Shown: positions 17,043 to 46,333, numbered from the stretch's first letter. The stretch is DNA of 64,000 nt from Patescibacteria group bacterium (GCA_036835125.1 DAITMO010000001.1:319508-383507); one strand, 5' to 3'. Program-made: numbers and translations. Notes: generated from the sequence alone by a model not told the origin.

Positions 17043-17075
17043 TATCTCTATTTAAAGGTAAATTAAGGTAAATTA

Positions 17076-20430: not shown

Positions 20431-22069
20431 ATACATATTTTTAATAATTCTTTTGCTGGCGATACCGGCAGTGCGGTATCTATTTGTTTATGGTTTTTTT
20501 GGAGTCTCGGATGATCTTCATATTGGCTGGCTTTATGAAATGGATAGGGTTATTAAGATGCTTCAACTTCCTCCAAGATATGTTCCTGATTTAAGTTTTG
20601 GATTTGGATATCCGCTATTCAATTTTGTCTATCCGCTTCCTTTTTATTTTGGTGAGGTATTTCATCTTTTGGGGTTTTCGTTGGTAAACAGCGTAAAAAT
20701 AGTCTTTGGATTGTCAATTCCTCTTTCAATGTTTTTTATGTACAAATTCTTAAAAGAGTTTTTGAATGAAGAGTTTTCACTTGCCGGATCTGTTTTATAC
20801 GTATATATGCCGTATAGGGCAACTGAGCTTTTTGTTAGAGGAACAATTGGGGAGATTGTTGCCTTTGTATTTCTGCCCTTAATTGCATTATCTATTGTCA
20901 ATTTAACAAAAGAGAAAATAGAAAATAAGTGGATTGGAATATTGGCATTATCGGTTGGAGGTTTGATTCTTTCTCACAACATAATGGCATATATGTTTGT
21001 GCCGTTTGTGCTGCTACTTCTAGTTTTGAGAATTGTATTTGTTGTTAAAAACAGAAAGGAATCTATTGTTAAAAGTATTAGTGGTTTAATATTAGGTTTG
21101 ATAGTATCTTCATACTTTTGGTTTCCTGCAATCAGTGAGAGTTTACTTGTGAAGTATGACACGGTATTTAATTTTTATGACCATTTCCCGACGCTTAAGC
21201 AATTCATAACTCCATTCTTTGGTTATGGTGCTTCAGTTCCCGGTCCATATGACACAATGTCTTTTTATGTTGGATTAACCGGGATCTTTGTAGTTGCTGC
21301 CGGGTCCCTTCTTTTTTTAATAAAGTTTAAGAAGTTTTCAAAAACCGAAAAGGTTTATATTACTTGGGGCATTACTATTCTTTTAATTAGTATGTTCATG
21401 ATGAACTTTAGATCTGCATTTCTTTGGAGAAATTTGCCACTTCTTCCTTACTTTCAATTCCCCTGGAGGTTTTTGTCAATGGTTGCTTTTGCTTCCCCAA
21501 TAATCCTACTAGGATTAACTAAAAATAAGTTTGGTAATGCTATTTCATTTGTGGTTCTTTTGACGGCGATTGTTTTAAACTTTAATTATTTTAAGACAAG
21601 TGAGTATTTGGGTAGAGGGGACTATTATTATATTAATAGGTATATACCGGTTCCCATGGCTTCAGAAGAATACAAAAAGACATCTGAGGAATATTTGCGT
21701 CTTCCTCTTGGCACTGAGGAAAGACCGGAATCTAATATGCCGAGGGCATATTCAGAGATACCAGGCATTGTTGAGGTGGTTGAGATAAATCCGCTTGATG
21801 CAAAGATTATTACAGATAGTAATGAGGGTTTCATTTTAAATTACAGCAAGTATTATTTTCCTGGATGGTTGGCTAAAATAGATGGTGAAAATACAGAAAT
21901 TAGTGCTGGAAAACCATATGGTCAGATTACAGTACAGGTTCCATCAGGCAGACACATGGTTGAAATTTTCTATCGTGAGACACCAAAAAGGTTAATATTT
22001 GATGCAATATCACTTGTGGGTATTGGAATATCTGTTTATTATATTTTCAGAAGAGAGAAAGAAAAGTAA
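20402..22069 (+). CDS. YfhO-like/PTPS-related polytopic membrane protein (GT-C-like), tandem paralog 3 of 3
   Basis: SDDLHIGWLYEMDRVIKMLQLPPRYVPDLSFGFGYPLFNFVYP and C-terminal YFPGWLAKIDGENTEI. The ATG at 20402 (MEKIRKYLNKYIF) is chosen by analogy with the N-terminus of paralog 2; the ORF extends to 20378. Confidence 0.5.
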   Translation: MEKIRKYLNKYIFLIILLLAIPAVRYLFVYGFFGVSDDLHIGWLYEMDRVIKMLQLPPRYVPDLSFGFGYPLFNFVYPLPFYFGEVFHLLGFSLVNSVKIVFGLSIPLSMFFMYKFLKEFLNEEFSLAGSVLYVYMPYRATELFVRGTIGEIVAFVFLPLIALSIVNLTKEKIENKWIGILALSVGGLILSHNIMAYMFVPFVLLLLVLRIVFVVKNRKESIVKSISGLILGLIVSSYFWFPAISESLLVKYDTVFNFYDHFPTLKQFITPFFGYGASVPGPYDTMSFYVGLTGIFVVAAGSLLFLIKFKKFSKTEKVYITWGITILLISMFMMNFRSAFLWRNLPLLPYFQFPWRFLSMVAFASPIILLGLTKNKFGNAISFVVLLTAIVLNFNYFKTSEYLGRGDYYYINRYIPVPMASEEYKKTSEEYLRLPLGTEERPESNMPRAYSEIPGIVEVVEINPLDAKIITDSNEGFILNYSKYYFPGWLAKIDGENTEISAGKPYGQITVQVPSGRHMVEIFYRETPKRLIFDAISLVGIGISVYYIFRREKEK

Positions 22070-24536: not shown

Positions 24537-25142
24537 ATGAAAAAAATGATTTGGCTGACAATAGTCTTTGTATTAGGACTGGTGTTTGTTGTTCCGGTTA
24601 TTCTCTCCATGGGTTTAAAAATGATTCCTATTAATACTCAACCTGGATTAAATTATGATGTAAGGCTTTCAATTTATAGAGACAGGTTGTTTCTCCAGAA
24701 ATTTACCGCCAAGGAAGACAATTTGACTGCAATTGGAATGTCTATCAGAAATCCCAATTTGAAAAATAAAGCGGAAATATATTTCAACTTGATGAACTTG
24801 GATGGAAGCATTATACGAAGCGTTGCTATAAGCGGCATGAATCTTGAAGATGGTTCTTTTACCAAGTTTGTTTTTGATCCGATTCCCGATTCATTTGGAA
24901 AGGAATATTTGTTCACCCTATCTTCTCCTGGGGCAGGACCGGAGGAAACAATAGAACTATTTATTATTGGAACTGATGATCCGTCTGGAATAACAGAATA
25001 TTCATACATGGGTGAATCTTTCTCTGGAGGAACTCCGATTGTTCAATATGTAAAGCCGATAAGCAAGGTAAATACAGTTAAAGAAGTTTATACTAATTTG
25101 ATTTCCAGACTTCTGCCGCATCATTCTCAAAAATCTTATTAA
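24537..25142 (+). CDS. hypothetical membrane-anchored extracytoplasmic protein
   Basis: N-terminal signal anchor (IWLTIVFVLGLVFVVPVIL) followed by a roughly 170 aa domain with no recognisable motif. Its 3' end overlaps the convergent gene 25093..26955 by 50 nt. Confidence 0.4.
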   Translation: MKKMIWLTIVFVLGLVFVVPVILSMGLKMIPINTQPGLNYDVRLSIYRDRLFLQKFTAKEDNLTAIGMSIRNPNLKNKAEIYFNLMNLDGSIIRSVAISGMNLEDGSFTKFVFDPIPDSFGKEYLFTLSSPGAGPEETIELFIIGTDDPSGITEYSYMGESFSGGTPIVQYVKPISKVNTVKEVYTNLISRLLPHHSQKSY

Positions 25143-26955
25143 GTCCATATTCTTCTGGAGTGACTGCTGGCGTTAGTTCTTTTGGATAATAAATAATATT
25201 TGCGTGAGTTTCTTCAAATGCTTTTTGGACAGTTTGTGTTTCACTTCCTTCAAAGATGGTCTTTTTAATAGTGTCTCTTTCGCGCCAGCTGTAGCCCATT
25301 ATGTCAGCTTGTTCATAGTCTTCAAAATATGTTCTTCGACTTGAGAAAGCTGCAACATATGAAGTATCAAACCAGTCCCAGATATTTGGTGTGACTTGTT
25401 TTAAATCTAGGTATTGATTGTAGGGTGGTGTAACAATAACAATATCTTTCGTGGTGTTTTTCTTGATATAGTTTAGAGCTCCAAGTTCACCTTCTGAAAT
25501 TCTTGCAAATGCAGGTCTTTTATAGAATTCATAGATAAGCCCTATCTGGGTTGGAATCATGATGGCGATAAGGGTAAGAGCAAATACTATTCGGATCGGG
25601 GTATGTTTTATTTTTGAAAGCAATTTAGAAACAGATATTCCTGCAAGTATTCCAAAGAACAATACAAAATACTGCAGAAACTGGCTGGTGTTGCTGGCAA
25701 CCCCTTTTTGGAGGAACAAAAGCGGTAGAACCAAGGAAATTACGATAGCTGATTTGATAAATACATTTGTCTTTATATATTCTTTAAGACCAATGAATCT
25801 TACTCCAAGATTTCCAAAGAAGAAGATAAGGAGTCCTATTCCCTCATACTCAAGAATTCTTAATATAGATTTAATTCCGCCGCGGTCAAGATAAAATTGA
25901 CGTCTCAACTCAAGGTCTATCCAATCAAGGCGGGAGTTTTCCACTATCATTGTTCGTATATACCACCAGGGTTGGAATATTAAAAATGCTGTAGATCCTG
26001 AAGTATTTGGAATGTAAAGGGCAGCAGCTAATATTCCACTAATGCCAGTGATTATAAGTGTGTCAATTTTCTTTTCTTTAATTAGTTGCCAAAGTCCTGC
26101 AATTCCAAGAGCTCCTAGGGCAACAACTCCTGCATATACTTTAAAGCTTGCCAGGGTGCCAAAAAGGACTACACAGATTACTGAATATATTATTTTTGCC
26201 TTCTTTTCTTTTTGTTCCCTAAATGAAAGATAGAAATAAAGGCCAGTAAGTATTAAGAAGTCTGAGGCAATCTGAGGAGGGTTGCCTGCAGCACTTTGCG
26301 GTTGTGTTGCCCAGAATATGCTTTCTCCTCCTATTGTTTTATTTTTGATAAAAGTGACAATATATCCAAAACTTCCTGCAAAATATGTAAATATTGTTGC
26401 CCAAATAGGTGCATATTGGTTTTTACTCAGTTTTTTAGTTAGATAGTAAGCAGATACTCCCAAGAATAGGGAACCTATAAATGGAAATACTCTGAAGTAC
26501 AGGGTTACATCGGACACTGGAAGATACTTACCAATCATTGCCGGCAGAATATCACTAAAGAAGTGGTAGTTGATGAGCCTTTCTCCAGCAAAGGATGGAT
26601 TTTGGAATGGCCACCCTCGTCTTATCTCGTCCATTAACGCAATGTGCCATGCTCCATCGTGTCCGTTTGCACTCCAGAAAAGCATATCTCCACTCTTTGA
26701 GAATATTCCACTTGGGGAAATGATTGCCATTTGTCCAACAATTCCAAGGATAAAGACAAGAAGTGTTATAGCTGTCCGCTTATTCCATTTGGTGTTTGTC
26801 TTTTCTATTGCTTTTGCAATTGGTTTTCCTGCAAAAAGCATTAGGACAAGAATTGTGGGGACGATTAAGACAGGAATTTTTAAGAGTATGAATATATAGG
26901 AAAGGAGTGTCAGGCAAGAAAAAGCAGCAATTGAGAACATTAGTATTCCTTCCAT
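25093..26955 (-). CDS. polytopic membrane protein, putative GT-C-like (inverted paralog of 15309..17042)
   Basis: SANGHDGAWHIAL...NPSFAGERLINYHFF...GGESIFWATQ blocks are shared with 15309..17042. It is 620 aa with many TM helices and is the only minus-strand gene between 15 kb and 43 kb. Confidence 0.5.
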   Translation of the reverse strand: MEGILMFSIAAFSCLTLLSYIFILLKIPVLIVPTILVLMLFAGKPIAKAIEKTNTKWNKRTAITLLVFILGIVGQMAIISPSGIFSKSGDMLFWSANGHDGAWHIALMDEIRRGWPFQNPSFAGERLINYHFFSDILPAMIGKYLPVSDVTLYFRVFPFIGSLFLGVSAYYLTKKLSKNQYAPIWATIFTYFAGSFGYIVTFIKNKTIGGESIFWATQPQSAAGNPPQIASDFLILTGLYFYLSFREQKEKKAKIIYSVICVVLFGTLASFKVYAGVVALGALGIAGLWQLIKEKKIDTLIITGISGILAAALYIPNTSGSTAFLIFQPWWYIRTMIVENSRLDWIDLELRRQFYLDRGGIKSILRILEYEGIGLLIFFFGNLGVRFIGLKEYIKTNVFIKSAIVISLVLPLLFLQKGVASNTSQFLQYFVLFFGILAGISVSKLLSKIKHTPIRIVFALTLIAIMIPTQIGLIYEFYKRPAFARISEGELGALNYIKKNTTKDIVIVTPPYNQYLDLKQVTPNIWDWFDTSYVAAFSSRRTYFEDYEQADIMGYSWRERDTIKKTIFEGSETQTVQKAFEETHANIIYYPKELTPAVTPEEYGLNKIFENDAAEVWKSN

Positions 26956-26982: not shown

Positions 26983-28398
26983 ATGGGAAAGAAGACGTGG
27001 CTGATTCTGCTTGGAATTGTTCTTTTGGGGTTGGTTATCAGACTTATTAAAATTGGATCTCTTCCTCTTTACGGTGATGAGCTGACAATGGTATATGACA
27101 CCTACTCAATCAGCAAAACTGGAATGGATGCTACTGGAGAAAAGCTTCCTTTAACCTTTAAGATGGGAGCGGGTCGTCCTGGTGGATACATTTATTTTTC
27201 TGTTCCTTTTGTTGCCGCCTTTGGTCCTAATGTTTGGGGGGAGAGATCTCTGTCTCTTCTTTCGGGGGTTGGAATAATTATCCTCATATATTTCCTGGGA
27301 AAGAAATTGTTTGGTGAAAAGGTCGGGTTAACTGCAAGCATTCTTACTGCAATTTCTCCATGGGATATTTATTTAAGCAGGGGAGGATTTGAAGCACATT
27401 TTGCGCTGTTTCTGGCTCTTTTTGGGATAACAATGTTTTTTTACAGGAGATATATTTTTTGGGCAATTTTCTGGGGATTAGCACTTTTTACTTATCCGAC
27501 TTTCAAGTTAACTCTACCTATTATTTTTGTACTTTTAACTTTAGTACAGGGAGTCGCAAAATCATTAAAAGACAAAAAGTATATTGCAGGAACTTTACTT
27601 CTTTTGGTTTTTGGAGGAATTATCGCTACTCAAACTTTTACTGCGGGAAGCGAAGATAGATTTCTTTCCCAGAATGTTCTATCTGATGAAAAAACCAAAA
27701 ACAATCTGATTCAGGTGGTGAGTACAGAAAGAAATACCTCTATTCTTCCAAGTTTCTTAAAACCAGTTTTTATAAATAGAAAAATAGAATATGGAAAGAT
27801 TATACTTGATAATTATGTGGCCAATATCTCCCCACAGTTTCTCTTTTTGAGGGGGGACGGGAATCCCAGACATAATCCTGGAGAAATGGGAATGCTCTAT
27901 TTGGCAGAACTACCAATACTTTTAGTCTCCATTTTTCTTTTATGGAAGGAAGACAAGAAGAAGTTCACTATTCTTTTTGGTTGGATTTTGATAGTACCTC
28001 TTGCAACAATGTTAATGGGACAAACTCATGCTTTAAGAAATGGCTTTATGCTTCCTCCTTTAATTCTTTTGACTGCTTTTACACTTTCAAAGATGTCTAA
28101 AAAATATGTTAAGTTATTTGGTATTCTTGTTGGAATTCAGTTGGTTTATATTTTAGTGCGTCTTTATACAGTTGTTCCTGCTAAATTTGCAGACTTCTGG
28201 TCAGCTCCTGCAAAAGAGGCAGCTCTTATTGCAATAGAGGAGAGTAAGAATGGACAAAAAGTTACTTTGGATGTTACAAAAATAGACAATATTGAATATG
28301 CATATGAGGTATATGCAAAGGTTGACCCAAAAGAAGTTATTACCCAGAGCGGTAGTTTCCCCAAAGTTTATGGCAATGTCACAATCACTGATAAATAA
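26983..28398 (+). CDS. GT39/PMT_2 (ArnT-like) membrane glycosyltransferase
   Basis: DE loop motif LPLYGDELTMVYDTYSISKTG...LPLTF, polytopic, C-terminal soluble domain. Confidence 0.6.
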   Translation: MGKKTWLILLGIVLLGLVIRLIKIGSLPLYGDELTMVYDTYSISKTGMDATGEKLPLTFKMGAGRPGGYIYFSVPFVAAFGPNVWGERSLSLLSGVGIIILIYFLGKKLFGEKVGLTASILTAISPWDIYLSRGGFEAHFALFLALFGITMFFYRRYIFWAIFWGLALFTYPTFKLTLPIIFVLLTLVQGVAKSLKDKKYIAGTLLLLVFGGIIATQTFTAGSEDRFLSQNVLSDEKTKNNLIQVVSTERNTSILPSFLKPVFINRKIEYGKIILDNYVANISPQFLFLRGDGNPRHNPGEMGMLYLAELPILLVSIFLLWKEDKKKFTILFGWILIVPLATMLMGQTHALRNGFMLPPLILLTAFTLSKMSKKYVKLFGILVGIQLVYILVRLYTVVPAKFADFWSAPAKEAALIAIEESKNGQKVTLDVTKIDNIEYAYEVYAKVDPKEVITQSGSFPKVYGNVTITDK

Positions 28399-28408
28399 AT
28401 TCAAAGTC

Positions 28409-29878
28409 ATGACACATGGCAAGGCTTTTAAGATTATTTTATTTACTGTGGTTCTTATTTTTACGTTTATTTTAAGAGCTCATAACTATGAAAAAACTCC
28501 TACACCATCTCATTTAGACGAACAGCTCTATGCTCTTTCTGGAATTAACTTGATAGAAACAGGAGTTCCGGTTTCCTGGTCTACACTGGATTATCCGGAG
28601 AGTGCTGTTGTTTTTGATGGGAAAATCTCCTATAAAGGTGGAGAACCTTCTGCGTCGGTTAAGCTTTTTAAGCCGTGGCTTGATGAACCGCCTCTTTTCT
28701 CGTTACTGGTTGGAGAATCTGCACATTTATTTGGTGCAGACAGGAATGATTTTATTCCCTCTTCATTTATTAGATTCCCAATTGTGATAATTTCTACACT
28801 AACCTCAATTCTTATATTTCTTATTGCCAAAAAGGTTAGTGGTTACAGGATCGGAATTCTATCAATGCTTATTTATGGAACCGAACCGGTTATGGTTTTT
28901 GCGTCCCGCAGTGCAATGCCCGAGACTTTGATTACCTTTTTGTATTTGCTGGTAGTTTATTTATTAATTTATTTTATCAAATCCCCCAAATCTAGATACT
29001 TGATTCCAATCCCTATACTTGCTGGAATTGCAGGACTTGCGAAGCCAACCGGGTATTTTATTTTAGGAATTGCGGCTTACCTTGTTATTGCGAAATTGGT
29101 TGAAAATAAAACTAGTTGGAAGAAGATATCCATGACTGTTGGATATTTGATATTAGGAATTGTGCCTTTTGTTATTTTCTATATTTGGTATGGAAATCAT
29201 TTTGATCCAGAAATATTTAAAAGGATTATTTCTATTCAAGGTTTTAGGCCTGTGGGTTTTGAAAACTTGGCATGGTTTTTTATAACTCCAAGTTTTTCCA
29301 CTGTGGTTTTCAAAAGCAGTTGGTATGTGTTTTTGCTTCTTGCCAGTGCATTTTATATTTTCCAGCCAAAAGATAAATTGCAAAAAATTATTAGTTTGTC
29401 ATTTGTCTACTGGCTATGTGTGGTAATGGTTTCTTCAGGGGAGGTGGATCTTCTTTCCTGGTATAGATTTCCAGCACTTCCTTTTATGGCAATAATGGGT
29501 GCATGGGGAATAGAATATTTAGTTAAGAGGTCTGACTTTTTTGCCTCATTTTTAGCTGTTGGATTATTCTTAGGACCTCGTACACTTCTGGTTAATGCTT
29601 TTAGGCCAAACGTGATGCAGGGAACTTTTAGAGCAACAATACTAACACTTCTTGCACCATCTCTTCTCAATTCAGTTTTCAACAAAAAGGTATTCAAGGT
29701 TATCTCCAGAGCAGTCATTATTGGAGTGGTGGTGGTTGGGATGTGGTGGAATATCAAATACGTATACAATGCTTATGAAGTCGAATGCCAAAACAAAATT
29801 TGCCCGATGGTGCCAACAACTACCTTATCAAGTATTCACTTTCCTCTTGTCTGGAGGCTGTTTGTTCTTAGCGAGTAA
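28409..29878 (+). CDS. GT39/PMT_2-like membrane glycosyltransferase
   Basis: ATG at 28409 directly after the upstream stop. HLDEQLYALSGINLIETG DE-type loop and many TM helices. The ORF-track start at 28292 would overlap the upstream gene by about 100 nt. Confidence 0.5.
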   Translation: MTHGKAFKIILFTVVLIFTFILRAHNYEKTPTPSHLDEQLYALSGINLIETGVPVSWSTLDYPESAVVFDGKISYKGGEPSASVKLFKPWLDEPPLFSLLVGESAHLFGADRNDFIPSSFIRFPIVIISTLTSILIFLIAKKVSGYRIGILSMLIYGTEPVMVFASRSAMPETLITFLYLLVVYLLIYFIKSPKSRYLIPIPILAGIAGLAKPTGYFILGIAAYLVIAKLVENKTSWKKISMTVGYLILGIVPFVIFYIWYGNHFDPEIFKRIISIQGFRPVGFENLAWFFITPSFSTVVFKSSWYVFLLLASAFYIFQPKDKLQKIISLSFVYWLCVVMVSSGEVDLLSWYRFPALPFMAIMGAWGIEYLVKRSDFFASFLAVGLFLGPRTLLVNAFRPNVMQGTFRATILTLLAPSLLNSVFNKKVFKVISRAVIIGVVVVGMWWNIKYVYNAYEVECQNKICPMVPTTTLSSIHFPLVWRLFVLSE

Positions 29879-29897
29879 AGCTGGTAACATTTAGTAT

Positions 29898-31559
29898 ATG
29901 AAGAAGCTGATTTATCCAATACTTCTTGGTTTAATTGTTCTCCTTGCTTTCTTTTTGCGTTTCTATAAGGTTACTCAGTCTCCACCTTCTTTAAATTGGG
30001 ATGAGACTTCAATTGCCTATAATGCATACTCGATTTTAAAGACTGGTAAGGATGAATGGGGAGTAAAGTTTCCTCTGAACTTTAAGTCCTATGGTGAGTA
30101 TAAACTTCCGGCTCAAATTTATGCTTCAATTTCGGGAATTGCAATATTTGGACTTAACGGATTGGGAGTGAGAATTACTCCTGTTGTGTATGGTACTCTT
30201 ACAGTCCTTCTTTTATATTTTTTGGCAAACTTGCTGTTTAAGGACAAAAGGGTTGGACTTTTGTCTGCTTTTATTCTTGCAGTTTCTCCCTGGCATATAC
30301 AACTAACTAGGGCAAGTTTTGAATCAGGCTTTTCAGTATTTTGGGTTGTCTTGGGGGCAATATTATTTATTAAGGGTTTTGAAAAGAAAAAGTATTGGGC
30401 GCTTTCCATTATTCCTTTTGTAATTTCTATTTATACATATAATGCTGCCCGTGTTTTTACTCCTCTATTTATTTTTATGTTGTTTTTGATTTATAGAAAA
30501 GAACTTTTGAAAGACTTGAAAGTATTTTTAATTTCTTTTGGAATATTTGTTATCAGTGTTGTTCCCATCGGTTTATCATTCTTCAGTGGTGAAGCTTCAG
30601 CTAGGTTTAAGTTGGTGAGTATTATGGATGACCCCGGTTTTGTTCAGAGAGTTAATCAGGCAAGAGGAAAAACTGATCTGCCAGATCCACTGCCTAGATT
30701 GATACATAACAAAGTAACCCACTTTGCCTATGTGTTTGCTGGAAATTATTTGAGCCATTTTACTCCAGATTTTTTGTTTATGAATGGAGCAGGACATAAA
30801 CAGCATCATGTACAGGGAATTGGAGAACTTTTCTGGGTGCAAGCCCCTTTTATACTGGTGGGGATCTATTTCCTTTTCAAAAAGAAAGAAAAATGGAGAT
30901 TTTTCATAATTGCCTGGCTACTTTTGACATTCATTCCGGTTTCTATAACGGTGGACAGCATTCCTAATGCGTTAAGGACTATTCTTGCAGTTATTCCATA
31001 TTCGCTTCTCTCTGCTTATGGTTTTTGGCAGATTTTTGATATTTTTAAAGGTAAGAAAAAGGGGAGATTTTTTAATTTATCAATTATCCTAGTTTCAGCA
31101 GGTCTTTTCCTTTACCAATTTATTAATTTCCAAAATAATCTTTATAACATTTATCCAAAGCTGTATTCGCGCGACTGGCAGTATGGGTATAGGCAGGTCG
31201 TTACCTATATCAAAGATCATTACGATGAATATGATTTAATAGTATTCAGCCGTACATATGGTGAGCCACACATGTTTACCTTGTTCTTTATGAATTGGGA
31301 CCCCGCTAAGTATCAGAATGATCCAAATTTAGTTAGGTATGAATCAAATGATTGGGTTTGGGTCTTAAATTTTGATAAATTCTATTTCCCGGATTTGGGG
31401 GATGATGGAACAAAATACAAAGACATAGTTGATTTGAATCCTGGGAAGAAGATACTTTTTGTTGGACGATCACAGGACTTTTCTGATTCAGTTGAAAGGC
31501 TTTATACTGTTGATTTTCTTAATGGGAACAGGGCATTTGATATTGTTGAAAGCAAATGA
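29898..31559 (+). CDS. GT39/PMT_2-like membrane glycosyltransferase, tandem paralog 1 of 3
   Basis: PPSLNWDETSIAYNAYSILKTGKDEWGVKFPLNFKSYGEYKLP is a conserved block with the next two genes. Length 553 aa. Confidence 0.6.
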   Translation: MKKLIYPILLGLIVLLAFFLRFYKVTQSPPSLNWDETSIAYNAYSILKTGKDEWGVKFPLNFKSYGEYKLPAQIYASISGIAIFGLNGLGVRITPVVYGTLTVLLLYFLANLLFKDKRVGLLSAFILAVSPWHIQLTRASFESGFSVFWVVLGAILFIKGFEKKKYWALSIIPFVISIYTYNAARVFTPLFIFMLFLIYRKELLKDLKVFLISFGIFVISVVPIGLSFFSGEASARFKLVSIMDDPGFVQRVNQARGKTDLPDPLPRLIHNKVTHFAYVFAGNYLSHFTPDFLFMNGAGHKQHHVQGIGELFWVQAPFILVGIYFLFKKKEKWRFFIIAWLLLTFIPVSITVDSIPNALRTILAVIPYSLLSAYGFWQIFDIFKGKKKGRFFNLSIILVSAGLFLYQFINFQNNLYNIYPKLYSRDWQYGYRQVVTYIKDHYDEYDLIVFSRTYGEPHMFTLFFMNWDPAKYQNDPNLVRYESNDWVWVLNFDKFYFPDLGDDGTKYKDIVDLNPGKKILFVGRSQDFSDSVERLYTVDFLNGNRAFDIVESK

Positions 31560-32911
31560 AAATTGGAAAAAATAAAATCCTTCTTATCCTAGTATTTATT
31601 TTCTTCTTGATAACTAGGCTTTTTATGATCTCAGATATACCGGGATCTGTTTATTGGGATGAAGCATCAATTGGATATAATGCATATTCAATAGGAACTG
31701 ATCTGAAGGATGAATGGGGACAAACTCTACCTTTGCACTTTAGAGCTTTTGGAGAGTTTAAGCTTCCTGTCTATATTTATTCTGTTGTGCCATTTGTAAA
31801 AATATTAGGGCTTAATGCTTTTGCTGTAAGGCTTCCTGCAGTGCTTTATAGTTTGGGTTCAATATTCTTAGTTTATCTTTTAGTTAAAAAGATTACGAAC
31901 AAAGATTTGCTTGGTGTATTATCTGCCTTTTTGCTGAGTATCTCTCCCTGGTTATTTATTTTTTCAAGAACTGGATATGAGGCAACAGCGGGGCTCTTCT
32001 TTATACTAGCTGGTACATACTTAGTATTACTTTCGGAAAAAAAGAATTTTTATTATTTATTGGGAACTTTCTCTTTTATCTTGTCTTTTTATAGCTACAA
32101 TTCCTTCCGTATTATCGGGCCGGTTTTGTTAGCTTTTCTAACTTTGCATAAATTTAACAAAAAGAGAATTCCTATTATTGTTTTATCTTTTGTAATATTT
32201 GTGATTTCTTTAATCCCAGTTTATCGGCTCTATAAATTTGATAATGGCGCATCACGCTTCACTCAGGTTGGTGTGTCAAATGCTAGCCAGGTTGTCAAAA
32301 ACTACTTTGCAAATTTTTCACCACGATTCTTGTTTATAAATGGTGATACAAATCCTAGAAGCCAGGTTCCAGATCACGGAGAATTATTTTATCTTGACAT
32401 GGTCTTTACTGTCTTGGGACTCATTTATATTATTAAGGGTAAAAAACTAATTAATTATTTGCCGGTTTTGATGTTGGTACTTTCTCCAATTCCAGCAGCT
32501 CTTACAAAAGAGTCTCCTCATGCGCTTCGTGCAATTCTTGCCGCACCAAGCTTTGCAATGATTTCTGCTTTTGGCATCTTTTTCTTTATCGAAAAGTTTA
32601 AGAAATATTCAAAATATGTTTTGTCATTAATTGTTGCGGGGTACTTGGTACTTTTTGGCTTTTATTATTCTGACTTTATTAAGAACTACAACAACGAAAC
32701 GAGAAAGGCTTGGCAATATCAATACAAAGAGATATTTTTAAATAAGACTGCCGGGGTTGTTACTGATGAATATGCACAGCCCTATATTTTTGCACTGTTC
32801 TATCAAAAGTATTCACCTGAGAATTTTAGGAGTGAGGTAAAATACAACCCACCCGATAAATGGGGGTTCTCTCTTGTTTCCTCATTTAACGGGTTTGAAT
32901 TTAGAAAATGA
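31556..32911 (+). CDS. GT39/PMT_2-like membrane glycosyltransferase, tandem paralog 2 of 3
   Basis: IPGSVYWDEASIGYNAYSIGTDLKDEWGQTLPLHFRAFGEFKLP. ATGA overlap with the upstream gene. Confidence 0.6.
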   Translation: MKIGKNKILLILVFIFFLITRLFMISDIPGSVYWDEASIGYNAYSIGTDLKDEWGQTLPLHFRAFGEFKLPVYIYSVVPFVKILGLNAFAVRLPAVLYSLGSIFLVYLLVKKITNKDLLGVLSAFLLSISPWLFIFSRTGYEATAGLFFILAGTYLVLLSEKKNFYYLLGTFSFILSFYSYNSFRIIGPVLLAFLTLHKFNKKRIPIIVLSFVIFVISLIPVYRLYKFDNGASRFTQVGVSNASQVVKNYFANFSPRFLFINGDTNPRSQVPDHGELFYLDMVFTVLGLIYIIKGKKLINYLPVLMLVLSPIPAALTKESPHALRAILAAPSFAMISAFGIFFFIEKFKKYSKYVLSLIVAGYLVLFGFYYSDFIKNYNNETRKAWQYQYKEIFLNKTAGVVTDEYAQPYIFALFYQKYSPENFRSEVKYNPPDKWGFSLVSSFNGFEFRK

Positions 32912-34506
32912 GATATTTAAAGATTATTGTTCTTACATTGATAGTTTTGGCAGCCACTTTTTTAAGGTTGTATAAACTAACTGATGTTCCTCCATCTTTG
33001 AATTGGGATGAAACTGCAGCGGGTTATAACGCCTATACAATTGCTAATTGGGGAGCAGATGAATATGGGAACAAGTTTCCAATAACTTTCAGGTCTTTCG
33101 GAGATGATAAACATCCTGTACATATTTATATAACTGCACTTTTTGTAAAAGTGTTCGGTCTTAATGAGTTTGTCACAAGGTTTCCCAGTGCCTTATTTGG
33201 AATACTGACAGTCGTTGCTATTTATTTTCTAGTTAAGAAAATGTTTAAGAGTGAAGTTGCTGGAATTTTTGCTTCGCTGTTTTTAGCTGTTTCTCCCCAT
33301 CATTTGCAGCTTTCAAGAGGGCTTTGGGAGGCAAATTTTGCATTATCCTTCTATATTTTTGGCTTACTGTTTTTCTATAAATTTTTGGAAAAGAAAAAAT
33401 GGATGCTTCCTATCTCAATTCTTTGTTTTGGATTATCATTCTTTTCCTATCACTCTTCCAAAGTCCTTGTTCCACCAACACTTATTCTTCTTTTAGTTTT
33501 TTATTTCAAAAAGATTGTTAAAGATAGAAAAATATTAATCATTTCAGGATTGGTGTTCCTTCTTTTTGTTGGACTGACCATCAAGGATCCGAGAATCTTG
33601 GGTTTTGCCAGAGTTGAACAAAATAAATTCAGTAAAGATGACATAAAAAATACTTTTATCTATCAAAAAACAAATAGCCAAATTTTAGGAAAAGCTGAAA
33701 TAGTTTTTGACAGTTACAAAACATATTTCTATCCAAAGTATTTGTTTACCTCGGGAGACACTAACCCCAGAAACTCAGCTAATGCTTTTGGTCAGTTTTA
33801 CAAAATTGATGCGCTATTGATGGTGGTAGGAATCGTGGCACTTATTCTTTTAAGGTCAAAGGAGTCACTAACTATGGCAATGTGGCTTATCCTCGCACCT
33901 TTACCTGCTGCACTTGCTGGAGGGCCACAGAATGCGATTAGGGCATGTTTTATGATTGGAGTGGGGATTATTTTATCCGCGCTAGGGGCTGCAAAGATTG
34001 CTGCTATTTTTAAGAAAAAGGTTTGGTATGTGGCAATAAGCATTTTGGTACTCGCACCTCTTTTTTGGGAGTTTGGAAAATATATGAATTATTACTACAC
34101 GGTTTATGGGCAGAAGCATGCAATTGAGTGGCAGTATGGAATGAAAGGGATTGTGAGGTATCTAAAGAAGAATCCTGATAGAGTGCAAGTTTATATGGAT
34201 AAAATCAGGCAGCAGCCGTATATATTTTTCCTATATTATCTTAAGACTCCCTTGCCTGAACTGTTAGAGACGGTTAAATACGATCAGAGTGAATCTAAGA
34301 GCTACAATACAGTCGTATCATTCGATAAATATCAATTCGGTGGCAACTGGAATATAATTGATAGCATCCCGACCTGCGGGGTAACCTATATAATGACGCC
34401 TAGTTATCATTCAGGTTTGAGATATGCGGCGGATCTGGAGACAAAAGAAGTGATTGAGTATCCTGATGGCAGTGATGCATTTTATATAGTAGAAGGATGT
34501 AAATAA
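32908..34506 (+). CDS. GT39/PMT_2-like membrane glycosyltransferase, tandem paralog 3 of 3
   Basis: VPPSLNWDETAAGYNAYTIANWGADEYGNKFPITFRSFGDDKHP. ATGA overlap with the upstream gene. Confidence 0.6.
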   Translation: MRYLKIIVLTLIVLAATFLRLYKLTDVPPSLNWDETAAGYNAYTIANWGADEYGNKFPITFRSFGDDKHPVHIYITALFVKVFGLNEFVTRFPSALFGILTVVAIYFLVKKMFKSEVAGIFASLFLAVSPHHLQLSRGLWEANFALSFYIFGLLFFYKFLEKKKWMLPISILCFGLSFFSYHSSKVLVPPTLILLLVFYFKKIVKDRKILIISGLVFLLFVGLTIKDPRILGFARVEQNKFSKDDIKNTFIYQKTNSQILGKAEIVFDSYKTYFYPKYLFTSGDTNPRNSANAFGQFYKIDALLMVVGIVALILLRSKESLTMAMWLILAPLPAALAGGPQNAIRACFMIGVGIILSALGAAKIAAIFKKKVWYVAISILVLAPLFWEFGKYMNYYYTVYGQKHAIEWQYGMKGIVRYLKKNPDRVQVYMDKIRQQPYIFFLYYLKTPLPELLETVKYDQSESKSYNTVVSFDKYQFGGNWNIIDSIPTCGVTYIMTPSYHSGLRYAADLETKEVIEYPDGSDAFYIVEGCK

Positions 34507-37100: not shown

Positions 37101-39208
<2,108 letters not shown>

Positions 39209-42435: not shown

Positions 42436-43095
42436 ATGAAAACTATTGTAGAAAAACATTTTGATGAAGTTGCAGACACCTATGATACTGGCAAGAAGCG
42501 ATATTCATATTATTATTCAAGTTTAAAAAAGCTTCTAAGTAATTTAATTGGTAAAAACAAAAAAGTGTTTGAGTTTGGTTGTGGAACAGGGGACTTACTT
42601 GTCTCACTTAATCCGAAGTTGGGATTTGGAATGGACATTAGTAAGAAGATGATTGAAACTGCAAAGAAAAAACATTCAAGTAAAAAGAATGTTGTGTTTT
42701 CGACTTCAATGCCAAAGGGGAAATTTGACTACATTTTTTTGAGTGACGTGGTAGAACACTTGAGTGATCACAAAAATACTTTTAAAGACTTAAAAAGAGT
42801 AATGAATGGTGATGCAAAGATAATTGTTACAATGGCTAATCCTATCTGGGAACCTCTATTAATGTTATGGGAGACACTTGGCTTAAAAATGAAGGAAGGG
42901 AAACACAAAAGGGTGGGATATAGGGAATTGAAACATATATTGGAGAATCTTCACTTAAGGGTTGTCAAACATGACTACAAACTTCTTATCCCAATTGAAG
43001 TTCCTTTTATAACTAACTTTGCAAATAAATACTTAGAAAGATCATTGAAAAAGCTTTGTTTCATTGAGTATTTTGTCGTGGAGCGTGAACACTAG
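42436..43095 (+). CDS. class I SAM-dependent methyltransferase
   Basis: Motif I VFEFGCGTGDLLVSL and motif post-I FLSDVVEHL. Confidence 0.75.
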   Translation: MKTIVEKHFDEVADTYDTGKKRYSYYYSSLKKLLSNLIGKNKKVFEFGCGTGDLLVSLNPKLGFGMDISKKMIETAKKKHSSKKNVVFSTSMPKGKFDYIFLSDVVEHLSDHKNTFKDLKRVMNGDAKIIVTMANPIWEPLLMLWETLGLKMKEGKHKRVGYRELKHILENLHLRVVKHDYKLLIPIEVPFITNFANKYLERSLKKLCFIEYFVVEREH

Positions 43096-43098
43096 TTT

Positions 43099-44304
43099 CT
43101 AAAGCTTGAATTCTTTTAGTCCAATCCAGGCAAGCTTAAAAAGAAGAAGTCCGTGATAGAATCTTCTTATGTTTGTTGATCCGTATTCTCTTTCTTTGTA
43201 ACGGATGGGAACTTCAATCACTTTTAAGTTATGTTTTATAGCAGAGAAAATTAGAGCAAAATCTCCAAATGGATCGATTTTTAGGTATTTAAGGTAATCT
43301 TTTTTCATTTTTTCGAAATCTTTTTTCCAGAAGACCTTTGTTCCACAGAGCGTATCTTTAAAATGTTGCCCTAATATCCAGGTAAAAACAAAACCGAAGA
43401 ATTGGTTACCCATTTTATTTAGTGTCTGCATTGCCTGGTCTTCCATTGGGTAGACCAATCTACTACCGTTAGCAAAATCACCAAGTCCATTAGCTAGTAC
43501 GTTGTAGAATTTTGGAAGGTCAGAGGCGGGGACTGTTCTATCTGCATCATAGATCATAAATATATCGTTTGTTGCTTTTTCAAAACCAAGTTTTACTGCG
43601 TCAGCCTTCCCTTTACCTTTTTGTTTGAAAGATTTTATTCTAATGAATTTGTTGTTTTTATATTTTTCTACTTGTTTGCCTATTACCTCCCATGTTTTAT
43701 CTTTAGAACCACCTTCGATGAAAACTATTTCCTGGTTTTTACCGAATTTTGGTATGGATTTAACAATTTTTTCAATGTTTCCTTCTTCGTTTCTTGCAGG
43801 AACAATGATTGAAACAGAATAATCATTGTTTTTGGATCTAAGATTGTTGGTTTTTTGTTTGGCTATTGTTATTGCTGTTATTCCAAAGAACCTTTTTTGA
43901 ATACTAATAACTTCAAATCCACTAAGGTTTAAGATATTTGCTAAATCATCCTGGTCAAGCCAGTTTTGATTTTTTATTTTCTTTCTAAGACCCAAAAATG
44001 AGGCGAAATTCAATACTGGCTCCCAAATGGGATTGTGATATGAGATTAGTACTCTTGTTTCTTTATCTATGTTTTTCTTTAATTCCTCAAAATATTTTTG
44101 GATGTCTGGAATGTCTCCAATAACATTATCAAGAATGATTTCCCCACCGATGGTGGAAAAATCTTTATCAGCAAGCGACCCTAGCTGTGAAGCTTTACTG
44201 AGAAGATAGCACTGTTTCTGGCGTGAAGCTTCATAAACTCTATTTAAGTCACTATGATAGGCTTTTTGGAAAATATTTTGTGGCATTGTATGTCGTTGTG
44301 CCAT
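43099..44304 (-). CDS. two-domain protein: N-terminal methyltransferase-like domain (degenerate SAM motif) fused to a C-terminal GT2 domain
   Basis: N-terminal region ...ISYHNPIWEPVLNFASFLGLRKK is homologous to the C-terminal half of the MT at 42436..43095 (NPIWEPLLMLWETLGLKMK), but its glycine motif is degenerate. The C-terminal half YSVSIIVPARNEEGNIEKIV...FIEGGSKDKT...YDADRTV is GT2. Confidence 0.6.
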   Translation of the reverse strand: MAQRHTMPQNIFQKAYHSDLNRVYEASRQKQCYLLSKASQLGSLADKDFSTIGGEIILDNVIGDIPDIQKYFEELKKNIDKETRVLISYHNPIWEPVLNFASFLGLRKKIKNQNWLDQDDLANILNLSGFEVISIQKRFFGITAITIAKQKTNNLRSKNNDYSVSIIVPARNEEGNIEKIVKSIPKFGKNQEIVFIEGGSKDKTWEVIGKQVEKYKNNKFIRIKSFKQKGKGKADAVKLGFEKATNDIFMIYDADRTVPASDLPKFYNVLANGLGDFANGSRLVYPMEDQAMQTLNKMGNQFFGFVFTWILGQHFKDTLCGTKVFWKKDFEKMKKDYLKYLKIDPFGDFALIFSAIKHNLKVIEVPIRYKEREYGSTNIRRFYHGLLLFKLAWIGLKEFKL

Positions 44305-44316
44305 TATAACTATTAT

Positions 44317-45294
44317 TTATTTTTTGATAAGCATTAATATTAATCCAATTATCTTTTCTTTATCTTTTGGATTGCTCTCAGCCACTAACAAGGTTAAAGC
44401 AGTTAATGCCTCAGGGGAAATTTTTGAAACATTTAAAATATTGGCTTTCTTTAGAAACCAAATAAATGCAAAAGCTCCACTTCTTTTGTTTCCATCGACA
44501 AATGGATGTCCTTTTGCAATAAAGTAAAGCAAATGTGCAGCCTTTTCTTCCAAAGTTGGATATAAATCCTTTTTTCCATATGATTGAAGAATATTTCTAA
44601 CAATAGAATCTATTTCTTCACCTTGTTTTCCTTGACCAAAAAGATTAGTGGCGTTACCCAGATCAATAAGGTTTGTTTTTAGATCAAACAATGCCCTTGT
44701 CAATTCATCAGAAGTTATATCTATTTGTCTTTTAGTACTGCCTTTTGTTGGTAATCCTGACTTGTCATACGTATCAAGAGATAGCCAAGTTGAAGCAAAC
44801 AGTTTTACTAAATCTAGAACATCGGATGTTCTTAGTTCATTGTTTTCAGGAAGATACTTTTTAACATTATCTACAGCTTGCAAAAATGATTGATAATTTT
44901 TAGTTAAACGTTTTTTATTGATAGTATAACCTTGCAAGATGTGTTGTCTTAGTGTTTTGGTGGCCCACTGGCGAAATTTTGTAGCTTTTTTAGAATTGAC
45001 GCGATATCCTATAGATAAAATTAGGTCTAAATTATAGTATTCTATTTTTCTTTTTACCCATCTACCACCCTCATTTTGAACTGTTTCCATTTTGGAAACA
45101 GTTGAACTTCTATCAAGCTCTCTTGTTGCAAATATATTATTGACGTGTTTGGATATTGCTGCTTTTTGAACATCAAAGAGTTTGCCAATTTGAGGTTGTG
45201 TTAAAAATATGTTTTTCCTGGTTTCATCAAACCTGACTTCAACAGCTCCATCGCTGCCTTGATAAACGATTATTTTATTATTTCCATTTGCCAT
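44317..45294 (-). CDS. RhuM-like N-terminal domain fused to Fic/Doc-family domain (Doc-like motif)
   Basis: N-terminal KIIVYQGSDGAVEVRFDETRKNIFLTQPQIGKLFDVQKAAISKHVNNIF matches the RhuM virulence-protein family. C-terminal HPFVDGNKRSGAF is a Doc-type motif (HxFx[DN]GNKR) that lacks the second Arg of the AMPylating Fic motif. Confidence 0.75.
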   Translation of the reverse strand: MANGNNKIIVYQGSDGAVEVRFDETRKNIFLTQPQIGKLFDVQKAAISKHVNNIFATRELDRSSTVSKMETVQNEGGRWVKRKIEYYNLDLILSIGYRVNSKKATKFRQWATKTLRQHILQGYTINKKRLTKNYQSFLQAVDNVKKYLPENNELRTSDVLDLVKLFASTWLSLDTYDKSGLPTKGSTKRQIDITSDELTRALFDLKTNLIDLGNATNLFGQGKQGEEIDSIVRNILQSYGKKDLYPTLEEKAAHLLYFIAKGHPFVDGNKRSGAFAFIWFLKKANILNVSKISPEALTALTLLVAESNPKDKEKIIGLILMLIKK

Positions 45295-45340
45295 ATTTTA
45301 TTTTCTCACACTGTAAAGTTTAGGACCATATTAGTAATTT

Positions 45341-46333
45341 ATGTTTAGTCATATTATACTTGAAGCTATGCGTGAGGTTAAAGTACTTATAAAAAAACCT
45401 TTTGTTCAGTATTTTTTATTTTTTCTCATAGTAGCCACTTATGGAGTTCTCTTTTTGGAAGTAATTAAGTATCCTGGATTCTTCAAAAACTATTTTTTTG
45501 TTGATGCAAAGATCATATTTGCTGCTTCAATATTTCTTTTGACTTTTCTTAACACAAAAACAAAACTGATGCCTCTAGTGTTTAAGATTAACAATATTTT
45601 ATTAGTTGTTCTTACTGCATTATATTTGGGTCTATATCTGCTTGAAGGAGCAAACTATACGAATTATGTTCTTTCAAAATTTGGATTTCATTTAGATGGA
45701 CTAATTCTTCCTGTTCTTTTTGGATTTTTTATTTTTCTTGTTCAAAAGTTTAAAGACGAAGTAGTTAATTTTGGAAAGAAAAGTAAAGTATATCCAGTAT
45801 TTGTACTTTTGATAGTCTATTTTGTGGTTAGAAATTTGAGCTACTCTTTGGAAATGGGAGTTTCCAGGACTTCTTATATTCTTTTCCATTTAGGGAACAC
45901 TTATGACGAAAAGATGACATACCAGTGGGGAGTTTTTTATGACTTTATGTCATTTATCAAAAATAATACTCCGTTAGACTCAACAATTATTATTCCTCCA
46001 GAAGAAGGAGCTTGGCTTATGGGGACAGGGGAACCAAATTTTGTTAGAGCATTCCTTTATCCAAGAACAATTGTTCCAGAAACTCTAATTATTTCTGATG
46101 AGAAAATAGAATCTTATAATGATAATACTTACATTTTAATTTCTTGGGGGCAAGAAGCGTGTCGTCCAGATCCAGATTGTCATGGTTGGCCAAAACAAAA
46201 AATTAAAACTTTTGAAATAATTTATAAAAAACCTGATTCAAGTGACGTAGCTGAAATCAAAAAAGATACTATTTATGATCCTGATAGTAAAACGTATGTA
46301 TATGGTTTGATTAAACCGTTAGTAACTAATTAA
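45341..46333 (+). CDS. hypothetical polytopic membrane protein (cassette copy A, gene 1)
   Basis: N-terminal half has about 6 TM helices. C-terminal soluble domain YDEKMTYQWGVFYDFMSFIKNNTPLDSTIIIPP...AFLYPRTIV is homologous to 49228..50136. Confidence 0.45.
   Translation: MFSHIILEAMREVKVLIKKPFVQYFLFFLIVATYGVLFLEVIKYPGFFKNYFFVDAKIIFAASIFLLTFLNTKTKLMPLVFKINNILLVVLTALYLGLYLLEGANYTNYVLSKFGFHLDGLILPVLFGFFIFLVQKFKDEVVNFGKKSKVYPVFVLLIVYFVVRNLSYSLEMGVSRTSYILFHLGNTYDEKMTYQWGVFYDFMSFIKNNTPLDSTIIIPPEEGAWLMGTGEPNFVRAFLYPRTIVPETLIISDEKIESYNDNTYILISWGQEACRPDPDCHGWPKQKIKTFEIIYKKPDSSDVAEIKKDTIYDPDSKTYVYGLIKPLVTN

Follow-up and report, generated by a model that had tools for sequence, protein, structure and literature searches.

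An apparently truncated methyltransferase-glycosyltransferase gene adjoins a putative RhuM-Doc insertion in a glycan locus of a Patescibacteria group bacterium

Archaeal dolichyl-phosphate mannose synthase (DPMS; 5mlz), GtrB (5ekp, 9nyc) and ArnC (8vxh, 9bhc) have the GT-A fold and the DAD metal/nucleotide motif in common, and all three have C-terminal transmembrane helices, by which such enzymes are anchored and their lipid-phosphate site is built. An S-adenosylmethionine (SAM)-dependent methyltransferase (MT) module is coupled to family 2 glycosyltransferase (GT2) modules in ORF6 of Klebsiella pneumoniae O7 and in WbdD-type terminators (PMC11231755); the O7 protein is built as MT, kinase, coiled coil and two glycosyltransferases (GT), is of a polymerising GT subtype and has an active MT. 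P1 Doc, a kinase, phosphorylates EF-Tu at T382 and arrests growth (PMC5851678); in the Phd/Doc type II system the cognate Phd antitoxin gene lies directly upstream in the same operon. RhuM was described in 2013 as often fused to DOC, and the published RhuM-DOC associations are with restriction-modification and PrrC loci (PMC3710099). BifA of S. equi subsp. zooepidemicus is described as having an N-terminal RhuM and a C-terminal Fic part; it enters host cells and its effects need the Fic histidine (PMC6529018). These systems are compared here with two genes that adjoin on the minus strand at positions 43,099 to 45,294 of a 64-kb stretch from a Patescibacteria group bacterium (GCA_036835125.1 DAITMO010000001.1:319508-383507): a GT2 gene with a partial MT domain, and a RhuM-Doc gene. 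The whole stretch is called the window, and coordinates refer to it unless another locus is named.

The best explanation of the whole, considered quite probable, is that two independent features adjoin, namely a vertically inherited gene for half an MT domain and a GT2 domain (half-MT/GT2), which belongs to the core of a surface-glycan locus in Woesebacteria/Microgenomates, and an inserted RhuM-Doc gene. A preliminary description of this DNA had taken the two minus-strand genes for one island. The placement of the GT2 gene is the same in every relative examined, all of which are without RhuM-Doc, and only RhuM-Doc appears to have been inserted. The positions of the open reading frames (ORFs), the domains, the motifs and the 3-nt convergent gap without a terminator were all found as given there, using ORF, Pfam and terminator scans. 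The genes and the gaps between them are as follows.

42436..43095, plus strand: stand-alone MT, 219 amino acids (aa), ORF at these coordinates
43096..43098, no strand: gap of 3 nt between the convergent stop codons (TAG at 43093-43095, ttt, cta at 43099-43101)
43099..44304, minus strand: half-MT/GT2, longest ORF 401 aa, ORF at these coordinates
44305..44316, no strand: spacer of 12 nt from the RhuM-Doc stop codon to the start of the longest GT2 ORF; right-hand edge of the putative insertion
44317..45294, minus strand: RhuM-Doc, 325 aa, intact ORF
45295..45340, no strand: spacer of 46 nt from the RhuM-Doc start to the divergent membrane-protein gene; left-hand edge of the putative insertion
45341..46333, plus strand: multi-pass membrane protein of 330 aa, the conserved divergent neighbour (synteny)

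In the 401-aa protein Pfam identified Glycos_transf_2 (PF00535) at aa 165-352 (E 4.5e-22), and a sub-threshold match to Methyltransf_23 in which aa 56-134 correspond to profile positions 85-163 of 164 (score 18.4 bits, cutoff 27). With BLASTP, residues 100-169 of the neighbouring MT and residues 56-125 of the GT2 protein were 30% identical over 70 aa (E 5e-10), and the NPIWEP motif shared by the two proteins lies within this stretch, which bears out the earlier statement that the MT part is homologous to the C-terminal half of the convergent MT. The stand-alone MT is a class I SAM-dependent enzyme with Pfam matches to Methyltransf_23, 11, 31, 25 and 12 and an intact motif I (GCGTG, aa 48-52). 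No GxGxG was found within the first 120 aa in the window protein or in any of its 120 closest homologues (at least 59% identical, 324-397 aa), in agreement with the earlier view that the MT part may be non-catalytic. These homologues begin MxxNIFQK..Y..DL..VY and about 25 residues later pass directly into IILDNVIGDIPD, which corresponds in the alignment to IFLSDVVEHLSD in the neighbouring MT (β4, motif II). The parts of the GT2 protein, all on the minus strand, are listed here with the evidence for each.

43855..44142: MT remnant, aa 55-150, comprising β4-β7 and helices only (BLASTP, Pfam, AlphaFold2 (AF2), alignment)
44163..44228: in-frame insertion of 66 nt, aa 26-47, SRQKQCYLLSKASQLGSLADK (clean gap in the DNA alignment with loci L010 and L001)
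43195..43818: GT-A (GT2) catalytic domain, aa 163-370 (Pfam, PDB profile search, Foldseek)
43540..43548: DAD motif, aa 253-255 (D253 and D255 invariant in 52 sequences)
43105..43173: C-terminal amphipathic helix, aa 378-400 (AF2; the protein ends at residue 401)

The N-terminal domain thus shares homology with class I MTs in their core (motifs II and III, β4-β7), while motif I, the acidic residue after motif I, strands β1-β3 and the seven-stranded sheet are missing. In the AF2 model of the whole protein (predicted local distance difference test, pLDDT, 81.8; predicted template modelling score, pTM, 0.82) aa 55-150 form a folded unit with only four strands and mostly high-70s to low-90s pLDDT. 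As judged from its sequence the N-terminal domain is non-catalytic and without canonical SAM binding.

The missing half is present in a widespread family. A scan of one genome per species gave 580 relatives of the GT2 protein, and those in 77 loci (L016-L092) match residues 56-401 at 42-51% identity; the genomes with these loci include Bacteroidota, Nitrospira, Planctomycetes, Omnitrophota, Parcubacteria, Saccharibacteria and Peribacteria. Nearly all relatives outside Woesebacteria/Patescibacteria have an ORF that is about 100-110 residues longer at the N-terminus. Strict GxGxG, typically as VLEIGCGTG, was found in 64 of 80 loci, and most of the others have GCxxG variants in an otherwise complete N-terminal half. 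Alignment to the full-length fusions showed that the truncated Woesebacteria clade is without approximately 78 aa spanning β1-β3, and also without a second, hydrophobic segment of about 27 aa (IPxxSxxxNxxLxxLP...) after β6. When the N-terminal domain alone was compared with a representative library of 1.8 billion proteins (50% clusters), 606 matches were obtained, mostly MT domains; nearly all of these begin at query position 49-50 or so, which in most targets corresponds to position 100-120 approximately. The full-length MT-GT2 fusions (about 470-480 aa, uncharacterised) have an orthologous GT-A domain, an orthologous C-terminal MT half and the same domain order. They keep β1-β3 with GCGxG, the acidic residue after motif I and the hydrophobic segment, all of which the window clade is without, and the window clade has a stand-alone MT gene alongside, unlike most of the full-length loci. 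From these alignments the 401-aa protein can be described as a shortened, clade-specific form of the bifunctional MT-GT2 proteins of about 475 aa. The term degenerate, which had been used for the glycine motif, does not fit, as the whole β1-β3 segment appears to have been deleted and the glycine-poor stretch at aa 26-47 is a strain-specific insertion.

The half-MT is on average 41% identical to the C-terminal MT halves of the 77 other relatives, which are nearly all full-length, and the GT-A domain 54%. Compared with the same MT halves, the stand-alone MT has only 28% identity in its C-terminal half. Because of this difference (41% against 28%) the half-MT is best read as the orthologous remnant of the fused MT domain and the stand-alone MT as an older paralogue, not a recent duplicate; the proposal that the MT half is a decayed duplicate of the neighbouring gene is not upheld. 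The likeness to K. pneumoniae O7 ORF6 is one of general design, an MT module coupled to GT2 modules in glycan assembly; the architecture and the GT subtype differ. Truncated-clade proteins should not carry a methyltransferase name in annotation. One Woesebacteria member of the clade, P0070, is named 'type 12 methyltransferase' in public databases, probably a carried-over annotation error. Two other variants were seen among the relatives: an independent, partial shortening of the MT domain in Omnitrophota metagenome-assembled genomes (MAGs; L082, L091), and a 707-aa MT-GT2-MT triple fusion in a Verrucomicrobia MAG (L055 5001-6767).

The 66-nt insertion, which was mapped by a short DNA alignment around the GT2 start, is probably what had been taken for the degenerate glycine motif. 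It is missing from 119 of the 120 closest homologues, the only one to have it being the identical P0001 of the same organism, and it is also missing from an 86%-identical relative; no second copy was found in the window or in the compared loci. A motif I relic was considered as its origin and rejected on these same grounds. The inserted region is predicted to be disordered (AF2, pLDDT below 50 at residues 30-54). A hairpin with a 12-bp stem at 44137-44163, inside the coding sequence, directly follows the insertion.

The true start of the GT2 gene is probably not at 44304 but the ATG at 44286, which gives a protein of 395 aa. The homologues begin at the equivalent of M7 (MxxNIFQK), and other assemblies (ENA) annotate an identical protein of 395 aa (P0001). 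The sequence TATAAT at 44303-44308, which overlaps the start of the longest ORF, is matched in the alignment by the same hexamer ahead of the L010 orthologue. Because homology to L010 resumes at this TATAAT, 3-8 nt past the RhuM-Doc stop codon, the DNA alignment suggests that the GT2 gene keeps its own -10 element and starts at 44286.

The stand-alone MT aligns over aa 2-218, including its hydrophobic tail, with the N-terminal domain of the fusions of about 475 aa at 30-37% identity. Each of the seven distinct loci of the truncated clade has an orthologue of it (52-77% identity) that converges with the GT2 gene. A second MT was clear in only two of the 77 other loci, L074 and L055, with a weak match in L059; in L074 a separate MT on the same strand (6113-6772), 45% identical to the window MT, adjoins a full-length MT-GT2. 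Mean pairwise identity among 52 members of the clade goes from 0.73 in the GT-A domain to 0.68 in the half-MT and 0.18 in the linker, and the invariant residues of the half-MT include N91, E95, R107, Q113, N114 and W115. Purifying selection is likely to have kept the half-MT as a module with a structural or docking role and no catalysis. The clade would have deleted the SAM-binding half (β1-β3, about 78 aa) and the hydrophobic segment of about 27 aa from an ancestral MT-GT2, methylation may have been handed to the convergent stand-alone paralogue, and the fused domain would have been trimmed to a non-catalytic module. The clade would then be a case of domain erosion, in which half an MT fold is retained under selection after loss of the cofactor site, with an intact paralogue adjacent.

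A further possibility, of rather low probability, is that the two genes encode a re-partitioned two-protein enzyme. The half-MT would be a pseudo-dimerisation interface that recruits the stand-alone MT, and the MT-GT machine would be rebuilt in trans. The stand-alone MT alone would then keep the SAM site and the hydrophobic, possibly membrane-associating segment, and the product would be a lipid-linked, methylated sugar on which the GT-C enzymes of the locus would draw. If the two proteins do interact, the half-MT would be a natural pseudoenzyme domain kept as a docking site or scaffold for an active paralogue, and would give a handle on an uncharacterised MT-GT2 family that is widespread in Bacteroidota, Nitrospira, Planctomycetes and the candidate phyla radiation (CPR).

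That the half-MT is instead a functionless remnant of the ancestral MT domain, decaying neutrally, is improbable. Every SAM-binding element is gone, this strain tolerates a disordered insertion of 22 aa just upstream, and the same domain has been shortened independently in Omnitrophota L082 and L091, all of which would fit decay. Neutral decay does not account for a half-MT identity that is near that of the GT-A domain and far above that of the linker, for the many invariant residues, or for the confident folded unit given by AF2. A half-MT retained under selection agrees better with this pattern.

The GT domain has the GT-A fold and the DAD of polyprenyl-phosphate glycosyltransferases. The PDB profile search gave archaeal DPMS (5mlz, E 5e-15, with DAD aligned) and also ArnC, and the top Foldseek matches were ArnC (E 5e-13), DPMS (6e-12) and GtrB, with values ranging to 1e-9. 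Identity to DPMS, GtrB and ArnC is only 17-26%, and the window protein differs from them in its extra N-terminal half-MT domain. NCBIfam equivalogs were far under their cutoffs (AglJ 102 against 325, DPhHxTase 59.6 against 375). The domain probably takes a sugar from its nucleotide-activated form and transfers it to a lipid phosphate, and the lipid-linked sugar would be used by the GT-C-type membrane glycosyltransferases of the locus. Multi-pass proteins of the GT-C type are abundant there (PMT_2, PTPS_related, YfhO, PIG-V-like), together with a Wzx-like flippase, and a lipid-linked sugar donor would fit this context.

The position of the GT2 gene was compared with that in six related loci (L001, L002, L010, L013, L014 and L015), in which the GT2 orthologues are 51-86% identical. 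In all six the gene is antisense to the surrounding glycan locus and stands next to a convergent orthologue of the 219-aa MT, which in L002 is fused to the next membrane protein. The common flanking genes are a DUF2304 gene, two GT2 genes, an epimerase, a PIG-V-like gene and a membrane protein of about 325 aa; a syntenic counterpart of the 330-aa membrane-protein gene (321-330 aa) was found in L001, L002 and L005-L010. The convergent junction is tight or overlapping in the relatives, with an overlap of 11 nt in L010, L013 and L015. None of the six loci contains RhuM-Doc. The closest named relatives of the window are Woesebacteria/Microgenomates. Because the antisense, MT-convergent GT2 gene and the tight junction recur in relatives, the antisense orientation and the missing terminator appear to be ancestral features of a compact genome.

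The RhuM-Doc protein has Pfam matches to Virulence_RhuM at aa 64-135 (profile positions 1-70 of 252) and to Fic at aa 226-281. The PADLOC model PDC-S23 matches almost end to end (aa 5-324 against profile positions 4-324 of 327, E 2.3e-109). At least 7997 homologues were found; the best 120 are 57-100% identical, cover 94-100% and have a median length of 325 aa, and they are spread across CPR phyla, Gammaproteobacteria and others. Several sources name homologues 'virulence protein RhuM/Fic/DOC family protein' (NCBI name). The window protein is full-length, and given the length and coverage of these homologues it is not a pseudogene fragment. It is an intact member of a named, widely distributed family, with the same full-length PDC-S23 match, the same two Pfam domains, about 325 aa, the Doc motif and single-gene organisation; nothing in the architecture is different, and only the Woesebacteria-type CPR host and the site in a glycan locus are particular. 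The fusion is not new, having been in the literature since 2013, and its novelty had been overestimated. The features of the protein, on the minus strand, are the following.

44854..45294: RhuM N-terminal module, aa 1-147, β-hairpins and helices (Pfam; PADLOC PDC-S05 models aa 1 to about 150; AF2)
44320..44727: Doc-type Fic-fold domain, aa 190-325 approximately (Foldseek, profile search)
44476..44508: HPFVDGNKRSG, aa 263-273, catalytic motif

H263, D267, G268, N269, K270 and R271 are invariant in 50 sequences. The pattern HxFx[DN][GA]NKR was found in 115 of the best 120 homologues and the Fic motif GNGR in none of them; the window protein reads GNKRSG where the canonical AMPylating Fic motif would be HxFx(D/E)GNGRxxR, and a Lys at the second Gly of the Fic motif is characteristic of Doc toxins. 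About 135 C-terminal residues superpose on P1 Doc (3k33_A, 3dd7_A and 3kh2; Foldseek probability 1.0, TMt 0.62-0.73). A profile match was obtained to the Doc-family entry 9vzc (E 1e-6), the motif aligns to HIFNDANKR of P1 Doc, and NCBIfam DOC_P1 was sub-threshold (34.6 bits against a cutoff of 38.65). The Fic fold and the HxFx(D)(A/G)NKR motif are shared with P1 Doc, with sequence similarity limited to the motif region. RhuM-Doc differs from P1 Doc in having no Phd antitoxin gene and in an extra N-terminal RhuM/helical part of about 190 aa, and a relaxed Pfam search of the RhuM N-terminus and linker gave nothing meaningful. No free-standing small antitoxin ORF was found at the gene, which has just 46 nt of non-coding sequence on its upstream side and 12 nt on its downstream side; all short ORFs there lie within coding sequence. 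A RhuM/Doc fusion with a Doc-type motif and no adjacent antitoxin gene was given in the preliminary description and is borne out by Pfam, the motif count and the ORF scan. The earlier prediction of non-AMPylating chemistry is reasonable in view of the Doc motif, the Doc fold and the kinase precedent of P1 Doc (PMC5851678). The active site would predict kinase action, with phosphorylation of EF-Tu stopping translation as by P1 Doc. With no antitoxin gene, the RhuM/linker part would restrain this activity in cis until it is triggered; such cis regulation is the most economical hypothesis, although interdomain confidence in the AF2 model is low.

Six RhuM-Doc contexts, this window included, were compared, and no partner gene is conserved across them. 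The published associations with restriction-modification and PrrC loci are absent at the window locus; a restriction-modification pair adjoins RhuM-Doc in the Moranbacteria context. In a different CPR glycan locus (L093 4515-5969, JGI 3300025000) a 69%-identical RhuM-Doc (P0124) stands among PMT_2, GT2, epimerase and Wzx-like flippase genes. Two further contexts are a gammaproteobacterial chromosome and a Vibrio plasmid. On a conjugative Legionella pneumophila plasmid (NZ_CP016875.1; L102, 2097-6002) the RhuM/Fic/DOC gene starts 1 nt past a Tn3-family transposase gene, which suggests that it travels there as transposon cargo. The L093 gene is divergent from a gene of 127 aa that is 23S_rRNA_IVP/bAvd-like. 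Small downstream ORFs were considered as antitoxins in Moranbacteria (80 aa) and on the Vibrio plasmid (103 aa) and were rejected; they have no similarity to each other and no Pfam match.

There is little probability that RhuM-Doc works as an ordinary type II toxin with its antitoxin gene at some other place in the genome, or that it is an orphan or inactive toxin copy. The Doc-type motif, the Doc-like fold and the sub-threshold DOC_P1 match are what such a toxin would have, and the slot occupied by the gene otherwise contains classical toxin-antitoxin (TA) pairs. No Phd-like or other conserved small partner was found in the six contexts, however, and the two-domain architecture of 325 aa is kept in thousands of proteins, which indicates a self-contained unit; the catalytic residues are intact.

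The slot itself is variable between relatives. In L001 it is empty, with the GT2 gene and the divergent membrane-protein gene 6 nt apart. In L010 it contains an AbiEi/AbiEii pair, in L013 an AbiEii gene with a 75-aa ORF, and in L014 a MazF-like toxin with a 116-aa partner plus a HigB(Gp49)/HTH_3 pair. Extra AbiE pairs were found between the GT2 and MT genes in L014 and between the MT and the next gene in L010. The coordinates of these genes, within their own loci, are given here.

L010 4515-5899 and 7877-9144: TA/abortive-infection modules at GT2/MT junctions
L013 4120-4964: the same
L014 2355-3880 and 5136-6421: the same

RhuM-Doc is, by synteny, probably a single-gene mobile insertion in a slot that recurrently captures TA or abortive-infection modules, and strand-switch junctions of CPR glycan loci serve as recurrent landing pads for such genes.

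Several findings weigh against parts of this account. The composition of RhuM-Doc (GC content 0.319, 0.212 at third codon positions, GC3) is within the range of its neighbours, the edges of the gene have only short direct or inverted repeat matches at chance level with no target-site duplication or terminal inverted repeat, and no recombinase gene marks the edges. With no repeats, recombinase or compositional anomaly, the insertion is read from synteny; acquisition by horizontal transfer, for which flanking composition had been suggested as a check, gave no foreign signal in GC, GC3 or GC skew. The AF2 model of RhuM-Doc is of moderate confidence (pLDDT 74, pTM 0.50), with low interdomain confidence. 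PDC-S23 is a candidate and not a validated defence system, and a literature search for 'PDC-S23' found no paper. For the GT2 protein no transmembrane helices were seen in the AF2 secondary structure, with no dedicated transmembrane predictor run, and because of this the lipid-phosphate acceptor is taken from fold similarity. To our knowledge the MT-GT2 family is biochemically uncharacterised throughout, and a literature search for a characterised MT-GT2 polyprenyl-phosphate enzyme gave nothing directly relevant. BifA, the one protein described as RhuM plus Fic with an experimental study behind it, has been reported as a host-directed virulence factor and not as a toxin or defence protein (PMC6529018).

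It is very unlikely that both minus-strand genes are one horizontally acquired, functionally linked island, for example a toxin that guards or regulates a glycosyltransferase cassette. The two genes are on the same strand, 12 nt apart, and could be co-transcribed, and the 69%-identical P0124 also lies inside a glycan locus of another CPR genome. The synteny largely refutes a joint origin: the GT2 gene has the same position and orientation without RhuM-Doc in six independent relatives, the slot in those relatives is empty or filled by unrelated TA modules, neither gene has a compositional shift, and RhuM-Doc occurs elsewhere in unrelated contexts, including as Tn3 cargo on the Legionella plasmid. 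Equally improbable is that RhuM-Doc is exported to act on a different cell, for instance the host of a CPR episymbiont, by analogy with BifA and its described RhuM and Fic parts, host-cell entry and dependence on the Fic histidine (PMC6529018), since no secretion signal or secretion-system gene is evident at the locus, and the family has members in free-living bacteria as well as on plasmids and transposons and fits a model of a candidate defence system. Two independent features, one inherited vertically and one inserted, are therefore preferred.

The remaining observations concern the layout of the locus. No terminator-like site was found between the MT and GT2 stop codons. A promoter-like TTAACC-17-TATAAT at 45381-45353 on the minus strand is a consensus match only. 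Promoter assignments are weak because the counts are no higher than in shuffled sequence (14 promoter-like sites in the window against 12.8, and 2 terminator-like sites against 1.4, near chance). Pfam gave no match for the 330-aa membrane protein (45341..46333). No tRNA genes were found in the window, and thus no tRNA-linked integration.

Apart from one ORF at 38430-39038, nested in the antisense frame of the epimerase gene, the window has just two more minus-strand ORFs of 150 aa or longer, at 210-1304 and 25093-26955. The ORF at 25093-26955 (620 aa) lies amid a plus-strand glycan array and has no Pfam match at E <= 0.001. The gene at 210-1304 is a second Fic-family gene, of 364 aa with Fic_N and Fic. 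Its HPFEDGNGRTGR is the canonical motif of an AMPylase, in contrast to the Doc-type motif of RhuM-Doc, and its SSQLEG fits the SxxxEG motif of an inhibitory helix. Runs of consecutive plus-strand ORFs of about 450-580 aa are present at 15309-22069 and 28292-34506, and the four Pfam-scanned ORFs with matches in these runs (17076-22069, 28292-31559) are of the GT-C type (PMT_2, PTPS_related). A YfhO-like protein of 804 aa is encoded at 5411-7825 and a Wzx-like flippase at 13859-15352. The single-strand glycosylation locus is, at approximately 60 kb, unusually large.

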